Virus record (IMG/VR): IMGVR_UViG_648861009_000009
Reading direction: 5' to 3' (one strand)
From: a virus
Taxonomy: Duplodnaviria; Heunggongvirae; Uroviricota; Caudoviricetes
Length of the DNA: 43,791 nucleotides
The number at the start of each line of letters is the position of its first letter. The first letter of the stretch is position 1. Of this stretch, positions 1,009-24,473 are shown in pieces. The notes below the pieces were generated by a model. It was not told the DNA's origin. It saw only the letters and a program-made list of their open reading frames with translations, and made no database searches. The position numbers were made by a program, and so were the translations under genes.

Positions 1009-1083
1009 GTCCTCTTAGTTAAATGGATATAACGAGCCCCTCCTAAGGGCTAATTGCAGGTTCGATTCCTGCAGGGGACACCA
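1009..1083 (+). tRNA. argW: tRNA-Arg (anticodon CCU)
   Basis: 75-nt sequence GTCCTCTTAGTTAAATGGATATAACGAGCCCCTCCTAAGGGCTAATTGCAGGTTCGATTCCTGCAGGGGACACCA; cloverleaf, CCT anticodon, 3' CCA. Confidence 0.9.
1069..1083. repeat. attL core (15-bp direct repeat, 3' end of argW)
   Basis: ctgcaggggacacca repeated exactly at 42088-42102. Confidence 0.75.
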
Positions 1084-1244
1084 TTTATCAGTTCGCTCCC
1101 ATCCGTACCAGTCCGCAAAATCCCCTGAATATCAAGCCTTCCGTAGATTCACAGTTCGTCATGGTTCGCGTCAGATCGTTGACAGCCGCACTCCATGACG
1201 GGTAAAAAGTGGATAAAATAATTTTACCCACCGGATTTTTACCC

Positions 1245-2402
1245 ATGCTCACCGTTAAGCAGATTGAAGCAGCAAAGCCGAAAGAAAAACCATACCGCCT
1301 TCTCGATGGTAATGGCCTGTACCTTTATGTCCCTGTGTCAGGGAAAAAGGTATGGCAGCTTCGCTACAAGATTGACGGTAAGGAGAAAATCCTGACCGTC
1401 GGGAAATATCCGCTTATGAGTTTGCAGGAGGCAAGGGATAAAGCATGGACCGCGAGGAAAGACATCTCGGTTGGCATCGATCCGGTAAAAGCGAAAAAGG
1501 CTTCGTCTAACAACAATTCCTTTAGCGCCATTTACAAGGAATGGTACGAGCACAAGAAGCAAGTATGGTCAGTAGGGTATGCGACTGAACTTGCAAAAAT
1601 GTTTGATGACGACATTTTACCTATCATCGGCGGCCTTGAAATTCAGGATATTGAGCCGATAAAACTGCTGGAAGTAATCCGCAGATTTGAAGATCGCGGT
1701 GCAATGGAGCGAGCCAACAAAGCCCGCAGAAGATGCGGAGAGGTTTTCCGTTACGCTATTGTCACTGGTAGGGCTAAATATAACCCGGCACCTGACCTTG
1801 CTGACGCCATGAAGGGATACCGCAAGAAGAACTTCCCGTTTCTCCCAGCAGACCAGATCCCTGCATTCAACAAAGCACTGGCAACATTTTCAGGAAGCAT
1901 CATATCGCTCATTGCGACCAAAGTTTTACGCTACACAGCCCTAAGAACGAAAGAGCTTCGCTCCATGCAATGGAAGAACGTCGATTTTGAAAACAGGATT
2001 ATCACTATCGACGCCAGTGTGATGAAGGGCCGCAAAATTCATGTGGTCCCGATGTCAGACCAGGTGGTTGAACTTCTCACTACGCTAAGCTCAATCACCA
2101 AACCAGTCTCAGAGTTTGTTTTTGCCGGGCGCAACGATAAGAAGAAGCCAATCTGCGAGAACGCGGTTCTACTTGTGATCAAACAAATCGGCTATGAGGG
2201 TCTGGAAAGCGGTCACGGATTCAGGCATGAATTCAGCACGATTATGAACGAGCACGAATGGCCTGCTGACGCTATTGAAGTGCAACTTGCACATGCCAAC
2301 GGCGGATCTGTGCGTGGAATTTACAACCATGCTCAGTATCTCGATAAGCGCAGAGAAATGATGCAGTGGTGGGCGGACTGGATTGATGAAAAGGTGGGCT
2401 AA
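1245..2402 (+). CDS. intS: Tyrosine integrase IntS-type
   Basis: ORF 1209-2402 (GTG at 1209); ATG at 1245 gives MLTVKQIEAAKPKEKPYRLLDGNGLYLYVP matching remembered K-12 IntS; adjacent to argW. Confidence 0.88.
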   Translation: MLTVKQIEAAKPKEKPYRLLDGNGLYLYVPVSGKKVWQLRYKIDGKEKILTVGKYPLMSLQEARDKAWTARKDISVGIDPVKAKKASSNNNSFSAIYKEWYEHKKQVWSVGYATELAKMFDDDILPIIGGLEIQDIEPIKLLEVIRRFEDRGAMERANKARRRCGEVFRYAIVTGRAKYNPAPDLADAMKGYRKKNFPFLPADQIPAFNKALATFSGSIISLIATKVLRYTALRTKELRSMQWKNVDFENRIITIDASVMKGRKIHVVPMSDQVVELLTTLSSITKPVSEFVFAGRNDKKKPICENAVLLVIKQIGYEGLESGHGFRHEFSTIMNEHEWPADAIEVQLAHANGGSVRGIYNHAQYLDKRREMMQWWADWIDEKVG

Positions 2403-19595: not shown

Positions 19596-21008
19596 TTACC
19601 AACCGGAGGATGAGGGAACGTATATTTCTGTTTCTTCGCGGACCAATGCCGGGCAATGCATACACATCATCAGCGCATCAGCCAGGTTAGGAGATGGAAT
19701 ACCGAGCTTCTGTTTCATTTCGACCTTAGTCATAAGCTCCAGCTTCCCGTTATTATTGAATTTGCGCTGAATCTGCGTCAGTTCTGCAAACAGCTTCTCC
19801 AGCATCTTCTCGCCTATCGCTTCTTTGTCGAAACTCAGCATGTCGTCGGGGTCTGCATACTCACCGTGGACAACCGCCCGATATGTCAGATACAGCCTGT
19901 CAGCTAGCGCGTAATAGAATTGCGCTCGCTTATTGCGGAATACATCGCCAATAGTGCGAACGTTGTCGCCCTGCACGACTTCATCAGCCCATGCTCCCGC
20001 CTGATATGGTGCATCTTCATCAAATGGCGATTCGCTGCCCTTGAACATCGTAGCGGTGATTTTCTTGCCGGAGAACGCTTCCGTTGTCTGTCTGCGTAGC
20101 CCGGCACCAACACCATCACCATCCCACAGGTAGTGGTCAGAGCCGTCTTCAATCGCCAGCGAAGTAGCCCAGTCAGCACCCTCGTTGATGTCCATCAGCA
20201 GACCTTCGGCAATGCGCTTAACTACCGAACCGTGACGCGATGCATAACCTTTAGCATCTGGCCCTGTATCTGACGGGTCATGCGCAGAGACAACAGCGCC
20301 TTTCGCTTTCCATCCGAGTTTCTTGTGCGCATCGGTAGCAGCTTCAAGCCATTCACGTTTGAAGATTGCCATATCACTTGCGCTTACTGGCTCACCAAGC
20401 CAGATGTGACGATACAGTGTCGGATTTCTGCGTTTACACTCTTCCATCTCCAGACGGAGAACTTCAGGAAAGTGCGGATTGTCGGTGTAGTTCACCGTCA
20501 GCAGACAAATATCATCGGGAGGATTTACGACGAATCGCTGATAGGTATCGTCGAGGATGTTCTTCGGGTTAAAGCTCACCCATATTTCAGAGAACGGCTT
20601 GCGGATGGTTGGTATCAGGATATCCCACGATTCCTTTGTTACCGCTTCCGCTTCTTCCACCCAGCAGATATCAATGCCTTCGAGCGATTTAATCTTCGTC
20701 GGGTTGTTTTTGATGCCGTAGAACATGAACTCAGCATTCGTTCCGAGATGACGAATCATGGAACGCTGAATTTCAAACTCAGCCGAATACCCCTCCCGCT
20801 CTATGGTGTCTTCAAGCAACCGGATTACTGAATCGCTGATACTGTTTTGCAGTTCACGAGCGCAGAGAATACGCACAGGCTGCCGACGCGCCGCTTCAAC
20901 AAGCAGCCTCGCAATTGCCCATGACTTACCGCTACCTCGACCGCCTTTGGCGACTTTGTAGCGATGCGCCTCAATGAACGGTTCAAAGATAGGATTAATC
21001 GAGGTCAT
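19596..21008 (-). CDS. Terminase large subunit
   Basis: 470 aa; Walker A GGRGSGKS near N-terminus; ATGA overlap with upstream gene. Confidence 0.85.
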   Translation of the reverse strand: MTSINPIFEPFIEAHRYKVAKGGRGSGKSWAIARLLVEAARRQPVRILCARELQNSISDSVIRLLEDTIEREGYSAEFEIQRSMIRHLGTNAEFMFYGIKNNPTKIKSLEGIDICWVEEAEAVTKESWDILIPTIRKPFSEIWVSFNPKNILDDTYQRFVVNPPDDICLLTVNYTDNPHFPEVLRLEMEECKRRNPTLYRHIWLGEPVSASDMAIFKREWLEAATDAHKKLGWKAKGAVVSAHDPSDTGPDAKGYASRHGSVVKRIAEGLLMDINEGADWATSLAIEDGSDHYLWDGDGVGAGLRRQTTEAFSGKKITATMFKGSESPFDEDAPYQAGAWADEVVQGDNVRTIGDVFRNKRAQFYYALADRLYLTYRAVVHGEYADPDDMLSFDKEAIGEKMLEKLFAELTQIQRKFNNNGKLELMTKVEMKQKLGIPSPNLADALMMCMHCPALVREETEIYVPSSSGW

Positions 21009-21430
21009 TTTCCGAATAGAGTGCTCATCGGTGATGTTTCAATCTGGATTGCGCCGCCGTCCTTACCGACAAGCTCGTTAGTTACCTTGTCGCCATACTT
21101 ACGGGGATTCATTCTGGCCAGCGCCCATTTGCGGGTATCAACGCGAAGTCTTGCCTTTGCCACTTCAGCAGCATCTGGAATCGCAGTGTCAGCAATTTCG
21201 AATATCTCTTCGAAAATAGAATCAGCTCGTGCCTCAGTTGCCTTCGCGTACTTGTCTCTAAATTCTTCATGCTCTGACAGCCAGCGAAATACAGTAGCCT
21301 TTGCTGGCATGCCGGGGCGCTTGCAAACCTTAACCAGACTTTCCCCGGAGGCAAGCAGCGCACAGATATCATCAGCCACCTCCGGCAGGTAATCCGAAGG
21401 GCGACCGACATTCTTTTTCTCAGTCGCCAT
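21005..21430 (-). CDS. Terminase small subunit
   Basis: 141-aa ORF immediately upstream of and overlapping large terminase. Confidence 0.6.
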   Translation of the reverse strand: MATEKKNVGRPSDYLPEVADDICALLASGESLVKVCKRPGMPAKATVFRWLSEHEEFRDKYAKATEARADSIFEEIFEIADTAIPDAAEVAKARLRVDTRKWALARMNPRKYGDKVTNELVGKDGGAIQIETSPMSTLFGK

Positions 21431-21524
21431 ATTGATTATTTCCCTTCTGTTTGCTTATCCCACTCTTCGCGGAATTTGGATGGGTTGTCGAAGCCCTGAG
21501 AGCATGAACAAACTTTGATTACCA

Positions 21525-21719
21525 TTACTTAGCTCCTTCCTGCTTGCCTGTGTTTGATGTCGTTTCAGCAGCAGCCCCGGAGCAATTAACGCTACCCGCA
21601 ACACCATATCCATAACCAGTCTTGAAGAAATTGTTGCCAGTAAATTGGTTAACAATCTTCCCGCAGCACGGGCAGCGTTGGCATTGGCAATAAGGGGATT
21701 GATTATTCCAGTGATACAT
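21525..21719 (-). CDS. Small Cys-rich protein (CQCQRCPCC)
   Basis: Internal ATG at 21719 with RBS AGGAGA; 64 aa. Confidence 0.45.
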   Translation of the reverse strand: MYHWNNQSPYCQCQRCPCCGKIVNQFTGNNFFKTGYGYGVAGSVNCSGAAAETTSNTGKQEGAK

Positions 21720-22092
21720 CTTGTTTCTCCTGAATGAATGGCAGGAAGTGATTAACCATCCTGTCCAGCATGTAACAGTACGTCTCGTTGGCATCTTCAG
21801 GCCTTGTCGTCACGCCGACATCAGAGCAAACGTAAAAGCAGACGTGGGCGCACTCATGAACGAGCGTAGCGATCTGCTGATCGAATACTCCAATCAGATA
21901 GCATCGCTCACCCGTATCAGTGTTTTCATAGTTGCTTGCAAGCCCAAGATTGAATGGCTTCTCATCCCCGCTGCCGCCAAGGAATTTATCAGCGTGCTGA
22001 AACTGTTCTCTGGTTGTTGCGAGGTAGACGTGTGCACTTTGAAACAGCGGAATGGTGAACGCCGGGAGTTTGTGCCATTTGGCCTTAGCCAT
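21703..22092 (-). CDS. Hypothetical protein with HExxH motif (possible zinc metallopeptidase)
   Basis: 129-aa ORF; LVHECAHV; RBS GGAG; start overlaps upstream stop. Confidence 0.5.
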   Translation of the reverse strand: MAKAKWHKLPAFTIPLFQSAHVYLATTREQFQHADKFLGGSGDEKPFNLGLASNYENTDTGERCYLIGVFDQQIATLVHECAHVCFYVCSDVGVTTRPEDANETYCYMLDRMVNHFLPFIQEKQDVSLE

Positions 22093-22093
22093 A

Positions 22094-22336
22094 TCACACT
22101 CCAGCGGTGAACAGGTCTAACGCTTCCTTCGATTTACGCACCGCTTCGATAGTGCGGGTCGTGATATCCGAATTAGCGCCGCCTGACTGGAAGTGAATTT
22201 TGAATAGCTCAAGCTTCAGCTCGTCAGTGCCAATGAACTGAAATGCTTCTTCTGCGGCTGCGTTCTGGTTCATGACCAGTTTGTAAATCTCTAACTGGAA
22301 TTTCTGTTCTTCAGTCATGGGAATAATCTCTGCCAT
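22094..22336 (-). CDS. Hypothetical protein
   Basis: 80-aa ORF, first gene of 3-gene cluster. Confidence 0.45.
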   Translation of the reverse strand: MAEIIPMTEEQKFQLEIYKLVMNQNAAAEEAFQFIGTDELKLELFKIHFQSGGANSDITTRTIEAVRKSKEALDLFTAGV

Positions 22337-22443: not shown

Positions 22444-22466
22444 AAAAAAGGCCGCCTGAGCGACCT
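22444..22466 (-). terminator. Rho-independent terminator
   Basis: Minus-strand AGGTCGC-TCAG-GCGGCCT then TTTTTT. Confidence 0.55.
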
Positions 22467-22483: not shown

Positions 22484-22702
22484 TTAATCATCTGGGTAAT
22501 TAAGCGGCATCCAGTGTGTAACCTTGCTTGCTCCTGAATCGATGAATGCCTTGGTTCTCTGCCAGTAAGAGCCCATACATGATAGTTTGAACACGTCACC
22601 AGTATCAGTAATAGCTATAACCTCTTTAGACCACATCCCTTCTTTGCTTTCTGGTAGCCGGTGTTCAACATTGACCCATTGGTTTCCGTTATCATCCATC
22701 AC
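22484..22702 (-). CDS. DUF551-like phage protein
   Basis: 72 aa; W...LP......THWMPL pattern. Confidence 0.55.
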   Translation of the reverse strand: MMDDNGNQWVNVEHRLPESKEGMWSKEVIAITDTGDVFKLSCMGSYWQRTKAFIDSGASKVTHWMPLNYPDD

Positions 22703-22986: not shown

Positions 22987-23175
22987 TTACCCCAGCTTTG
23001 CTCGCACCAGCGCATCTTTAGCTTCGAGCAGCTTGCGGAGACCTGCTGACTTTTCAGCACTGTCCGGCAGTGATTCATCCATCAGTGTCGCAAGGTCACC
23101 GATTGGCTTACTTATTTCCTGCAGATGCGCAGGGAGGTGTTGATAAGCGAAATACTTCATGATTGGAGATGACAT
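22987..23175 (-). CDS. Hypothetical protein downstream of Rz
   Basis: 62-aa ORF. Confidence 0.4.
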   Translation of the reverse strand: MSSPIMKYFAYQHLPAHLQEISKPIGDLATLMDESLPDSAEKSAGLRKLLEAKDALVRAKLG

Positions 23176-23225
23176 TATTTACCCTCGGTTAGTAAAAAGC
23201 CTCGCTATTACGAGGCTATGATTGT

Positions 23226-23693
23226 TCATTTCAGGCACTGCGTGTTGATGTATTCCTGCAGCGCTCTCAGTGATGTTTGGTCGCTGATGATTCCGGATCT
23301 GATACTGAGAACGTTTCGTCCAGCAACTGGAGAGAGTTCGACGGTGGCATCATTGCCCATGCCGGAGGTGCGGGAGGTTTCGGTTGAGGCTGGCACTTGA
23401 CACTTTCCTTTGACGAGCACCCTGCCACCATTATCAAGCTTGCGCCGAAGAGCATCATTTTCAGCTTTCGCATCAGCTAACTCCTTCGTGTATTTTGCAT
23501 CGAGCGCAGCAACATCACGCTGACGCTGCTGCATGTCAGAGATGGTGGCGGTCGCCTGCTTCAGCTCACTGACTTTTTTATCGCGCTGCTCTTTGTAGGC
23601 GATTGCGTTATCACGGTAATGATTAACAGCCCATGACAGACAGACGATGATGCAGATAACCAGAGCGGAGATAATCGCGGTTACTCTGCTCAT
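23226..23693 (-). CDS. Rz: Spanin inner-membrane subunit Rz
   Basis: [31 protein letters not shown] near-identical to lambda Rz. Confidence 0.9.
23267..23473 (-). CDS. Rz1: Spanin outer-membrane lipoprotein Rz1 (embedded in Rz)
   Basis: +1-frame ORF inside Rz; lipobox VAGC; Pro-rich. Confidence 0.75.
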
Positions 23694-24166
23694 ACCTCAA
23701 TCTCTCTGACCGTTCCGCCAGCTTCTTTGAATTTTGCAATCAGGTTGTCAGCCTTATGCTCGAACTGACCATAACCAGCGCCCGGCAGTGAAGCCCAGAT
23801 ATTGCTGCAACGGTCGATTGCCTGACGAATATCACCGCGATCAATCATCGGTAAAGCGCCACGCTCTTTAATCTGCTGCAGCGCAACAGCGTCCTGGCTT
23901 TTGGGAGAGAAGTCTTTCAGGCCAAGCTGCTTACGATAGGCATCCCACCAACGGGAAAGAAGCTGATAGCGCCCGGCTGCTGTTGATTTGAGTTTTGGGT
24001 TTAGCGTGACAAGTTTGCGAGGGTGATCGGAGTAATCGGTAAATAGCTCTCCGCCTACAATGACGTCATAACCATGATTTCTGGTTTTCTGACGTCCATT
24101 ATCAGTTCCCTCTGACCACGCCAGCATATCGAGGAACGCCTTACGTTGATTATTGATTTCCACCAT
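23690..24166 (-). CDS. R: Endolysin R (lytic transglycosylase)
   Basis: 158 aa; [39 protein letters not shown] near-identical to lambda R. Confidence 0.95.
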
Positions 24167-24473
24167 CTTCTACTCCGGCTTTTTTAGCAGCGAAGCGTTT
24201 GATAAGCGACCCAATCGAGTCAGTACCGATGTAGCCGATGAACACGCTCGTTATATAAGCGAGATTGCTACTTAGTCCTGCGAAGTCGAGAAGGTCACGA
24301 ATGAACCAGGCGATAATGGCGCACATCGTTGCGTCGATTACTGTTTTTGTAAACGCACCGCCATTATATCTGCCGCGAAGGTACGCCATTGCAAACGCAA
24401 GGATTGCCCCGATGCCTTGTTCCTTTGCCGCGAGAATGGCGGCTAACAGGTCATGTTTTTCTGGCATCTTCAT
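24150..24473 (-). CDS. S: Holin S (dual-start S107/S105)
   Basis: 107 aa; [34 protein letters not shown] near-identical to lambda S. Confidence 0.95.

Follow-up and report, generated by a model that had tools for sequence, protein, structure and literature searches.

A predicted minimal zincin and its small neighbours between the lysis and packaging genes of a P22-like prophage

IMG/VR virus record IMGVR_UViG_648861009_000009 (Caudoviricetes) is a stretch of DNA of 43,791 nucleotides (nt), referred to here as the window, and it is a P22-like prophage. Between its lysis genes and its terminase genes lies a cluster of small open reading frames (ORFs) on the minus strand, one of which encodes a protein of 129 amino acids (aa) with an HExxH motif. 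Our subject is this protein, the small genes around it and the role that the cluster may play.

Four small genes ahead of the small terminase

The preliminary description of this DNA reported three minus-strand ORFs, overlapping or abutting, that encode 80, 129 and 64 aa and are each preceded by a ribosome-binding site. All three were found at those places with GGAG 6–7 nt upstream of the start; a single nucleotide separates the 80- and 129-aa ORFs, and the 129- and 64-aa ORFs share 17 nt. Their position between lysis genes and terminase also holds, with Rz upstream and a small terminase of the Sf6 type downstream. A fourth conserved ORF, of 29 aa, had been overlooked; its ATG shares bases with the stop codon that ends the 64-aa ORF (TAATG). 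The features of the cluster are as follows.

22094–22336, minus strand: 80-aa ORF (DUF2560), GGAG 6 nt before the ATG
21703–22092, minus strand: 129-aa ORF (HExxH protein), GGAG 6–7 nt before the start
21525–21719, minus strand: 64-aa ORF (Cys-rich), ATG at 21719, AGGAG 7 nt before the ATG
21436–21525, minus strand: 29-aa micro-ORF (MVIKVCSCSQGFDNPSKFREEWDKQTEGK), own AAGGAG, ends 5 nt before the ATG of the small terminase
21844–21858, minus strand: codons of H79-E80-C81-A82-H83, the predicted zinc-binding and catalytic motif, in predicted helix 74–91
21784–21786, minus strand: codon of E103, which is predicted to be the third zinc ligand; it belongs to N-E-T-Y-C-Y and opens helix 103–128

The two motifs picked out earlier are in place, LVHECAHV in the 129-aa ORF and CQCQRCPCC in the 64-aa ORF (about 21663–21689). 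A divergent copy of the whole cassette, with the same four ORFs in the same order, is found on metagenome contig L004. Against this copy, the ratio of nonsynonymous to synonymous substitution (dN/dS) is 0.03 for the 129-aa ORF (dS 1.47), 0.29 for the 80-aa DUF2560 ORF, 0.35 for the 64-aa ORF and 0.21 for the 29-aa ORF. Across the divergent copies (L004, L059, L028, L069 and L057) the ratio runs from 0.15 to 0.49 for the 64-aa ORF and from 0.09 to 0.40 for the 29-aa ORF, and the indels in these two small ORFs stay in frame (6 nt in the former, 18 nt in the latter). Because dN/dS is low in the divergent copies and the indels keep the frame, all four ORFs are very probably translated. The PGAP annotation of Escherichia coli strain LSC52 lists the first two ORFs only. 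An 89-aa version of the third ORF, starting at 21794, was considered and rejected, since its homologues begin at the internal ATG or GTG that has its own AGGAG.

The 129-aa protein and its HExxH...E motif

The 129-aa protein is a member of PHROG 1365, the Orf-129/hkcC family (phrog_1365, expectation value E = 2.1e-37, residues 1–125 on positions 3–121 of 127 of the profile), which is also matched by P22 hkcC, mEp044 gp72 and phCDa gp24. It shares about 60% identity (59–61% over 124 residues) with ST64T Orf-129, phage L Orf129, epsilon34 gp70 and g341c gp66, and 42–44% with proteins of mEp021-like lambdoid phages; more distant members occur in N4-like phages (phCDa gp24, KP8 and ECBP1). There are 206 close clusters, and an exhaustive profile search gave 814 family representatives at 50% identity, those listed being nearly all single-domain proteins of 105–140 aa. 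The window protein is acidic, with an isoelectric point (pI) of 5.25, and neither a signal peptide nor a hydrophobic segment is apparent in its sequence. A longer version of 180–194 aa is found in mEp021-like lambdoid phages (mEp044 gp72, L006 3501–4085, and clusters P0116–P0120); unlike the 129-aa form, it has an Ala/Glu/Lys-rich C-terminal extension, with a weak alanine-zipper match and a basic tail, KKGKRKPKAK.

An HExxH motif alone is unremarkable, because the window's open frames of at least 60 aa, 31,180 aa in all, contain two. Its conservation is another matter. Whether the HExxH residues are conserved among homologues had been left as a check, and they are, in 240 of the 242 full-length relatives. 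In 238 of these 242, HExxH is followed by x-E-x-x-x-[Y/F/W] at a spacing of 19–20 residues; in 168 of the 238 the Glu lies 20 residues beyond the second His, and in 52 it lies 19 beyond. In an alignment of 84 representatives with 24–49% identity to the query, no columns other than G50, H79, E80, H83 and E103 are invariant, and E103 is invariant in close and distant alignments alike (A1, A3 and A4). Conservation of HExxH in the family is thus far beyond chance.

AlphaFold2, supplied with 75 homologues, gave a model with a predicted local distance difference test score (pLDDT) of 85.5 and a predicted template modelling score (pTM) of 0.81. Strands are placed at residues 11–13, 20–25, 50–56 and 63–69 and helices at 28–37, 74–91 (with HExxH) and 103–128 (starting at E103), in the order beta-beta-alpha-beta-beta-alpha(HExxH)-alpha(E), and pLDDT is about 92–95 at the HExxH helix. 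Three features of gluzincin-type zincins are present, namely a conserved helical HExxH, a Glu on the next helix, and an N-terminal mixed sheet with a backing helix. The zincin-like metallopeptidase (MPTase) core described by Iyer et al. consists of a sheet, an N-terminal helix, the HExxH helix and a second helix with a Glu ligand (PMC5512222); the topology of the model is zincin-like and fits this core.

Marginal profile matches in the PDB (E 0.05–1) were all to zinc endopeptidases: myroilysin (E 0.046), the BMP1/tolloid astacins and peptidyl-Lys metalloendopeptidase, each aligning through the sheet and HExxH. With the close alignment, the PDB sequence-profile search returned 0 matches at E up to 10, and Foldseek comparison of the model with the PDB returned nothing below E 0.05. 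In BFVD, 31 viral proteins were matched at E <1e-3, most of them uncharacterised and a few labelled SprT-like, PolyVal metallopeptidase or metalloprotease.

The preliminary description had proposed a profile search against ImmA/IrrE and SprT, and membership of either family was not borne out. ImmA/IrrE (Peptidase M78) gave no Pfam match at E up to 1, either for the 129-aa protein or among 84 distant relatives, and the neighbours of the 129-aa ORF (DUF2560, the Cys-rich ORF and terminase) include no adjacent helix-turn-helix repressor for a pairing of the ImmA type. The sole Pfam match was to the SprT-like family (PF10263), at 12.7 bits against a cut-off of 25.6 (E 0.12, residues 73–91), and SprT reached E <0.01 in just 1 of the 84 distant relatives. 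The sole NCBIfam match was TIGR04267, the alpha-ketoglutarate (aKG)-HExxH peptide beta-hydroxylase model, at 18 bits against a cut-off of 40 (E 0.0022, residues 75–104). The PADLOC defence models gave no match for the six small proteins of the region at E up to 0.1.

Known enzymes offer several points of comparison. The thermolysin motif HExxH...NExxSD combines HExxH with a Glu ligand at a His-Glu spacing of 20 residues and has an N-E dipeptide, as in the 129-aa protein. Archaeal minigluzincins are of similar size, about 110–130 aa, and have the same HExxH and Glu ligand set. The likeness to thermolysin-type gluzincins and minigluzincins is one of motif and topology only, with no significant sequence or structure match. 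The MPTase domains of polyvalent proteins, including the C-terminal domain of ArdC, share the same minimal core and a setting of conflict between mobile elements (PMC5512222), and one BFVD neighbour of the model is labelled as a PolyVal metallopeptidase domain. However, the MPTase is a domain of giant multidomain proteins, whereas the window protein stands alone at about 125 aa and has no Pfam MPTase match.

Because of the conservation of the motif, the predicted core and the fact that the curated libraries do not claim it, we would file the 129-aa protein as a stand-alone minimal zincin of the HExxH + Glu type, and not as SprT or ImmA/IrrE. That it is a zincin-type metalloenzyme we consider likely, with good confidence. 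Zinc binding and peptidase activity are what we infer for it from the established zincin mechanism. It would be a cytoplasmic protein with one zinc ion held by H79 and H83 of the active-site helix and by E103 of the next helix, in which E80 would be the general base activating water; the conserved Y107 would lie near the metal, and a peptide substrate would bind, as a further strand, along the edge strand 63–69, which precedes the HExxH helix. The family is already catalogued (PHROG 1365, hkcC, Orf-129), and what is newly recognised is a zincin-like peptidase of mobile elements; no study assigning a function to the Orf-129/hkcC family was found in the literature and records searched.

Neighbours, expression and possible roles

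We lean, by a modest degree, towards reading the cluster as a mosaic of four independently assorting small accessory genes with a dispensable, conflict-type minimal zincin at its centre, and not as one three-gene unit. Gene context was surveyed in 80 IMG/VR loci encoding relatives with at least 55% identity, together with individual look-ups. The general order of the slot is Rz, then a GIY-YIG nuclease, Tad2-like, Acb2/Tad1-like, DUF551 or 62-aa ORF, then a DUF2560-type gene and the peptidase gene; the peptidase gene is followed by the 64-aa and 29-aa ORFs, by the decoration protein gene dec, by a gene for a 110-aa protein or by nothing, and then by the small terminase. In 74 loci the flank is long enough to show the neighbours of the peptidase gene. 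A DUF2560-type gene lies directly upstream of it in 43; directly downstream come Dec in 25, the 64-aa ORF in 14, the small terminase in at least 10 and a DUF2560-type gene in 6. Two lineages (74% and 56% identity) show the inverted order, in which DUF2560 comes about 6 nt after the peptidase. Given these counts and both gene orders, DUF2560 is a more consistent neighbour of the peptidase than the 64-aa ORF is.

The 80-aa ORF encodes a full-length DUF2560 protein (PF10834, E 1.1e-43, 147.7 bits against a cut-off of 25, profile positions 1–72 of 72; phrog_571, E 6.6e-41). The protein is acidic (pI 4.7), its orthologues include Sf6 gp67, HK620 hkbM and epsilon34 gp69, and its gene is found with 95–99% DNA identity in 146 phage records; the mentions of DUF2560 in the literature give no function for it. 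In ST64T, orf-118 encodes a DUF2560 protein extended at its N-terminus. An unlikely explanation of the locus starts from DUF2560: the peptidase and DUF2560 would form a two-gene module in which DUF2560 is a regulator, inhibitor, adaptor or substrate. Immediate adjacency in 49 of the 74 loci (43 upstream, 6 downstream), the inversion in two separate lineages, the extended ST64T protein and the 1-nt gap in the window all favour it. However, each gene is found without the other. The DUF2560 matches in Sf6 and APC_JM3.2 have no adjoining peptidase gene, Sf6 showing no DNA match beyond DUF2560, about 200 bp from the end of its genome; examples of the peptidase lacking DUF2560 come from Klebsiella prophages, the P22 ant moron, the nin region, N4-like phages and mEp044. 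In L009–L012, moreover, a 395-aa gene lies between the two, and the loci counted are phylogenetically non-independent.

The pairing put forward in the preliminary description, of a small metallopeptidase with a Cys-rich partner, is not supported by the survey. Only 14 of the 74 loci have the 64-aa ORF after the peptidase gene, the family of this ORF comprises six clusters in 5.8 billion proteins against 814 for the peptidase, and the two are found apart. Its product is basic (pI 8.6), with an invariant N-terminal C-x-C-Q-R-C-P-C-C-G-K and a variable tail rich in Gly, Tyr and Ser. It has no Pfam, PHROG or NCBIfam family match, AlphaFold2 gives it no confident fold (pLDDT 42.7), and tblastn finds no match in 50,697 phage records, while the back-translated Cys motif occurs in 16 of 2.9 million viral contigs. 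The ORF is intact in five divergent copies, one with GTG at the same start and one with the 6-nt in-frame indel; one copy is frameshifted. In L057 it comes after DUF2560 and not after the peptidase. A 74-aa Cys-rich protein that shares its YCQCQRCPCCGK motif with the 64-aa ORF is encoded at L111 1835–2059, in the early region of an unrelated phage, upstream of a 777-aa ORF. Because the motif is carried in that unrelated region, it appears to be a small mobile module, possibly a metal-binding one. The 64-aa ORF itself reads as a real, rare and independent small gene rather than a dedicated partner of the peptidase.

The 29-aa ORF, with the core QGFDNPSKFR(D/E)EWDKQTEG, is intact in the window and in L059, L028, L004 and L069, and it is called as a gene in L004 and L005. 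It occurs in eight phage records, in some directly after DUF2560 and without the peptidase (APC_JM3.2), and it is present without the 64-aa ORF in L069. Its core, QGFDNPSKFRDEWDKQTEG, stands ahead of at least three downstream genes, those of the Sf6-type small terminase, the gp3-type small terminase and the 110-aa protein. A weak DUF2740 match was obtained (E 0.06–0.12). The ORF may encode a micro-protein or be a conserved recombination linker at a mosaic junction; like the 64-aa ORF, it is an independent gene, and both micro-genes appear to be real.

Relatives of the peptidase are placed in diverse ways. In ST64T and L (Orf-129), epsilon34 (gp70) and g341c (gp66), the gene has the same place as in the window, after a DUF2560-type gene and before the packaging genes, and shares HECAH and NETYCY; there the next gene is dec, whereas the window has the 64-aa and 29-aa ORFs in that slot. 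The hkcC protein of P22 and HK620 matches the same PHROG (E 1.4e-39) and shares 35% identity as well as HECAH and NETYCY, but its gene lies in another genome region, between sieA and mnt in the ant moron of P22, divergent from sieA, as an intact ORF of 121–125 aa that is unannotated in some P22 records. One such record is P22-pbi AF527608, in which hkcC is intact at about 13849–14226 (L007 2489–2866); its start is some 30 nt away from sieA, and it overlaps P-sieA, a promoter annotated there, and ends at the bidirectional 't mnt' terminator. One distant family member lies in a nin region after NinB, YbcO and RusA, and another has an Arc/Mnt-like gene and the tailspike as its neighbours in an ant moron. 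A very distant member, on a metagenome contig, lies in a run of small genes with an Acb2/Tad1-hairpin gene four genes away.

This distribution bears on a quite improbable alternative, in which the peptidase would act late or in morphogenesis by processing a virion-associated, decoration or packaging protein. Many phages do have the gene directly upstream of the small terminase or dec in the late operon, and the zincin MPTase domains of phage polyvalent proteins have been proposed to process virion cargo (PMC5512222). On the other hand, Sf6 is without a match to the peptidase, the small terminases downstream of relatives are of at least four unrelated types, with or without Dec, and paralogues are found in the ant moron, the nin region and the accessory regions of N4-like phages. 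We know of no proteolytic maturation step in P22-like assembly. The preliminary description had also allowed that the ORFs might match known packaging accessory proteins, and no ORF of the cluster does so in Pfam, PHROG or NCBIfam. A gene that can be dispensed with, that turns up in accessory regions of four kinds and that is found whatever the terminase type or virion morphology is most likely no accessory to packaging or virion assembly.

The terminator earlier noted after the DUF551 gene, at 22444–22466, has the properties of an intrinsic terminator: the RNA fold has −18.1 kcal/mol (z = −2.6, with 0 of 200 shuffles as stable) and a U-run next to it. A simple terminator scan does not list it, as its T-run lies partly inside the stem. 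No sigma-70-like promoter was found between this terminator and the DUF2560 start; the scan found three weak sites in 3.7 kb against 3.9 expected, none of them placed to drive the cluster, and there is no terminator between the cluster and the small terminase gene. Since there is no promoter before the cluster and no terminator before the terminase genes, the cluster is probably read within the antiterminated late operon, with translational coupling. The presence of the cluster varies among related phages, and the idea of a late-region moron hotspot holds in part. The region does seem to be an accessory hotspot, with Tad2-like and Acb2/Tad1-like genes in related phages; the strict sense of moron is not supported, for lack of a promoter, and because late-operon expression is the most economical reading, the cluster would not be a classical moron. 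The corresponding explanation, that these are genes expressed from the prophage for superinfection exclusion or host modification in the lysogen, is about as improbable as a morphogenetic role. The paralogue hkcC stands divergent beside sieA in the ant moron of P22, a region that has promoters of its own, and in the window the upstream terminator insulates the cluster, but the promoter scan and a gene layout suited to translational coupling in a late operon speak against it.

On the mosaic reading, then, the four genes would share a slot of variable content that separates the lysis cassette of a P22-like prophage from its small terminase, where they would be transcribed with the antiterminated late operon and translated as a coupled chain. 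The company that the peptidase keeps points towards a function in conflict with the host. In Klebsiella prophages, the adjacent gene 60–100 nt upstream is Tad2-like (PF11195, E 6.5e-24) or Acb2/Tad1-hairpin (PF24729, E 1.7e-18), with coordinates L013 4665–4940 and L015 and L016 4619–4900, and such genes are also found in the same gap in several P22-like loci of IMG/VR. Because Tad2- and Acb2-type genes lie directly upstream of the peptidase homologue, the gap between lysis and terminase genes appears to act as a cargo site for anti-defence genes in Klebsiella and other enterobacterial prophages. From these neighbours, an anti-defence role, which the preliminary description had suggested, is plausible. 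The protein would cleave a host protein or a protein of a competing mobile element, for example an immune sensor or effector. That it is a counter-defence or host-takeover protease is a tentative proposal, to which we would not yet give even odds. Doubtful, and clearly less probable, is the wider proposal that Orf-129/hkcC proteins are widespread stand-alone counter-defence proteases that cut an immune sensor or effector of the bacterium or a protein of a rival phage; DUF2560 would be a facultative partner for specificity or regulation, and the gene would share an anti-defence island with Tad2/Acb2 sponges.

Several points weigh against a conflict-type zincin. The three ligands are assumed, from the topology of the model, to come together in space, and the 129-aa protein reaches no Pfam, NCBIfam or PADLOC threshold. 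The literature searched calls hkcC and Orf-129 'unknown'. The 80 loci surveyed are redundant and biased towards close relatives. Anti-defence genes usually act early, and expression from a late operon would be atypical. The slot also holds the capsid decoration protein Dec, a GIY-YIG nuclease and DUF551, and the association with Tad2 and Acb2 may reflect only that the gap tolerates any cargo. Since a capsid decoration protein and a homing-type nuclease are carried in the same slot, the conflict role remains an association.

Two further explanations concern the chemistry of the HExxH protein. It is very improbable that it is a DNA-dependent protease of the SprT/Spartan/Wss1 kind, which would clear DNA-protein crosslinks or bound proteins before packaging. 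Small HExxH proteins of the SprT-like and ImmA/IrrE types are common in phages, TLVHEcAH resembles the SprT-type TLLHEMIH, and the gene adjoins the packaging genes; the sole Pfam match (residues 73–91), two BFVD structural neighbours and one cluster named 'SprT-like family protein' by a source carry the SprT label. Against this, the match stays at less than half of its cut-off and is nearly absent among the distant relatives, and the protein is acidic, without a zinc ribbon, a basic DNA-binding region or any DNA-binding module. The third ligand in SprT/Spartan proteins is a His, whereas the 129-aa protein has a Glu 19–20 residues on. Least credible of all is a peptide-modifying or other metal enzyme of the aKG-HExxH hydroxylase type acting on the 64-aa Cys/Gly-rich peptide, for although the weak TIGR04267 match favours it and that ORF overlaps the end of the peptidase gene and resembles a small Cys/Gly-rich precursor, the match stays below its cut-off and covers the motif region only, and the 64-aa ORF is absent from nearly all of the 814-cluster family, parted from the peptidase by DUF2560 in L057 and matched in motif in an unrelated region (L111).

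The Orf-129/hkcC family includes genes of the classic phages P22, L, ST64T and HK620, and the recognition of a minimal zincin, its mobility and its Tad2/Acb2 neighbours together give a hypothesis open to genetic testing in P22 and E. coli. If the family does consist of counter-defence proteases, thousands of phage genes would be annotated at once, and proteolytic inactivation by a minimal enzyme would be an anti-defence mechanism distinct from the sponge, mimic and nuclease types. If it does not, the 'three-gene unit' is a chance juxtaposition of independent cassettes in which two micro-genes appear to be real. Nothing in the cassette is mechanistically surprising as yet.

The wider locus and its other genes

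The features that surround the cluster, and those at the start of the window, are as follows.

1009–1083, plus strand: tRNA-Arg(CCT)
1209–2402, plus strand: candidate integrase ORF, 397 aa, in the position expected for a prophage integrase, after tRNA-Arg(CCT)
24150–24473, minus strand: holin, late operon
23690–24166, minus strand: lysozyme, late operon
23226–23693, minus strand: Rz, with Rz1 nested inside, late operon
23198–23217, minus strand: intrinsic-terminator-like hairpin directly 3' of Rz, within the late operon
22987–23175, minus strand: 62-aa ORF between Rz and the DUF551 ORF
22484–22702, minus strand: DUF551 ORF (Pfam E 2e-8)
22444–22466, minus strand: intrinsic-terminator-like hairpin 3' of the DUF551 gene, at the upstream edge of the cluster
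21005–21430, minus strand: small terminase, Sf6-type (Pfam E 1e-44)
19596–21008, minus strand: large terminase
17467–19665, minus strand: portal

The succession of tRNA-Arg(CCT) and the candidate integrase ORF suggests that the prophage is integrated at an argU-type tRNA site. For the hairpin at 23198–23217, a counterpart exists in epsilon34, in which an intra-operon terminator is annotated at the equivalent place.

In related loci, the slot directly before the small terminase is occupied by Dec, by a Dec-like protein of 172 aa (phrog_3018, head decoration, E 2.6e-16) or by a 110-aa protein that is conserved; the window lacks all three. The 172-aa or 110-aa protein is encoded at L004 1671–2003, L059 4660–4992, L069 4464–4796 and L028 4642–5160. 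The 110-aa protein has a weak DUF1737 match and may be another protein of the decoration type.

The 62-aa ORF (MSSPIMKYFAYQHLPAHLQEISKPIGDLATLMDE...) matches phrog_1761 and phrog_5120. Its sole Pfam match is a weak one to Acb2_Tad1_hairpin (E 0.18), and an Acb2-like identity was rejected, as BLASTP gave no alignment with a bona fide Acb2-like protein. Matches to the ORF come from 319 phage records and no fewer than 1788 protein clusters, every one of which is named hypothetical, with 60–79% identity in Vibrio, Acinetobacter, Erwinia jumbo and Alteromonas phages and 36–57% in Gordonia, Brevibacterium and Myxococcus phages. Its spread over such an exceptional range of phages suggests that its product binds something universal.

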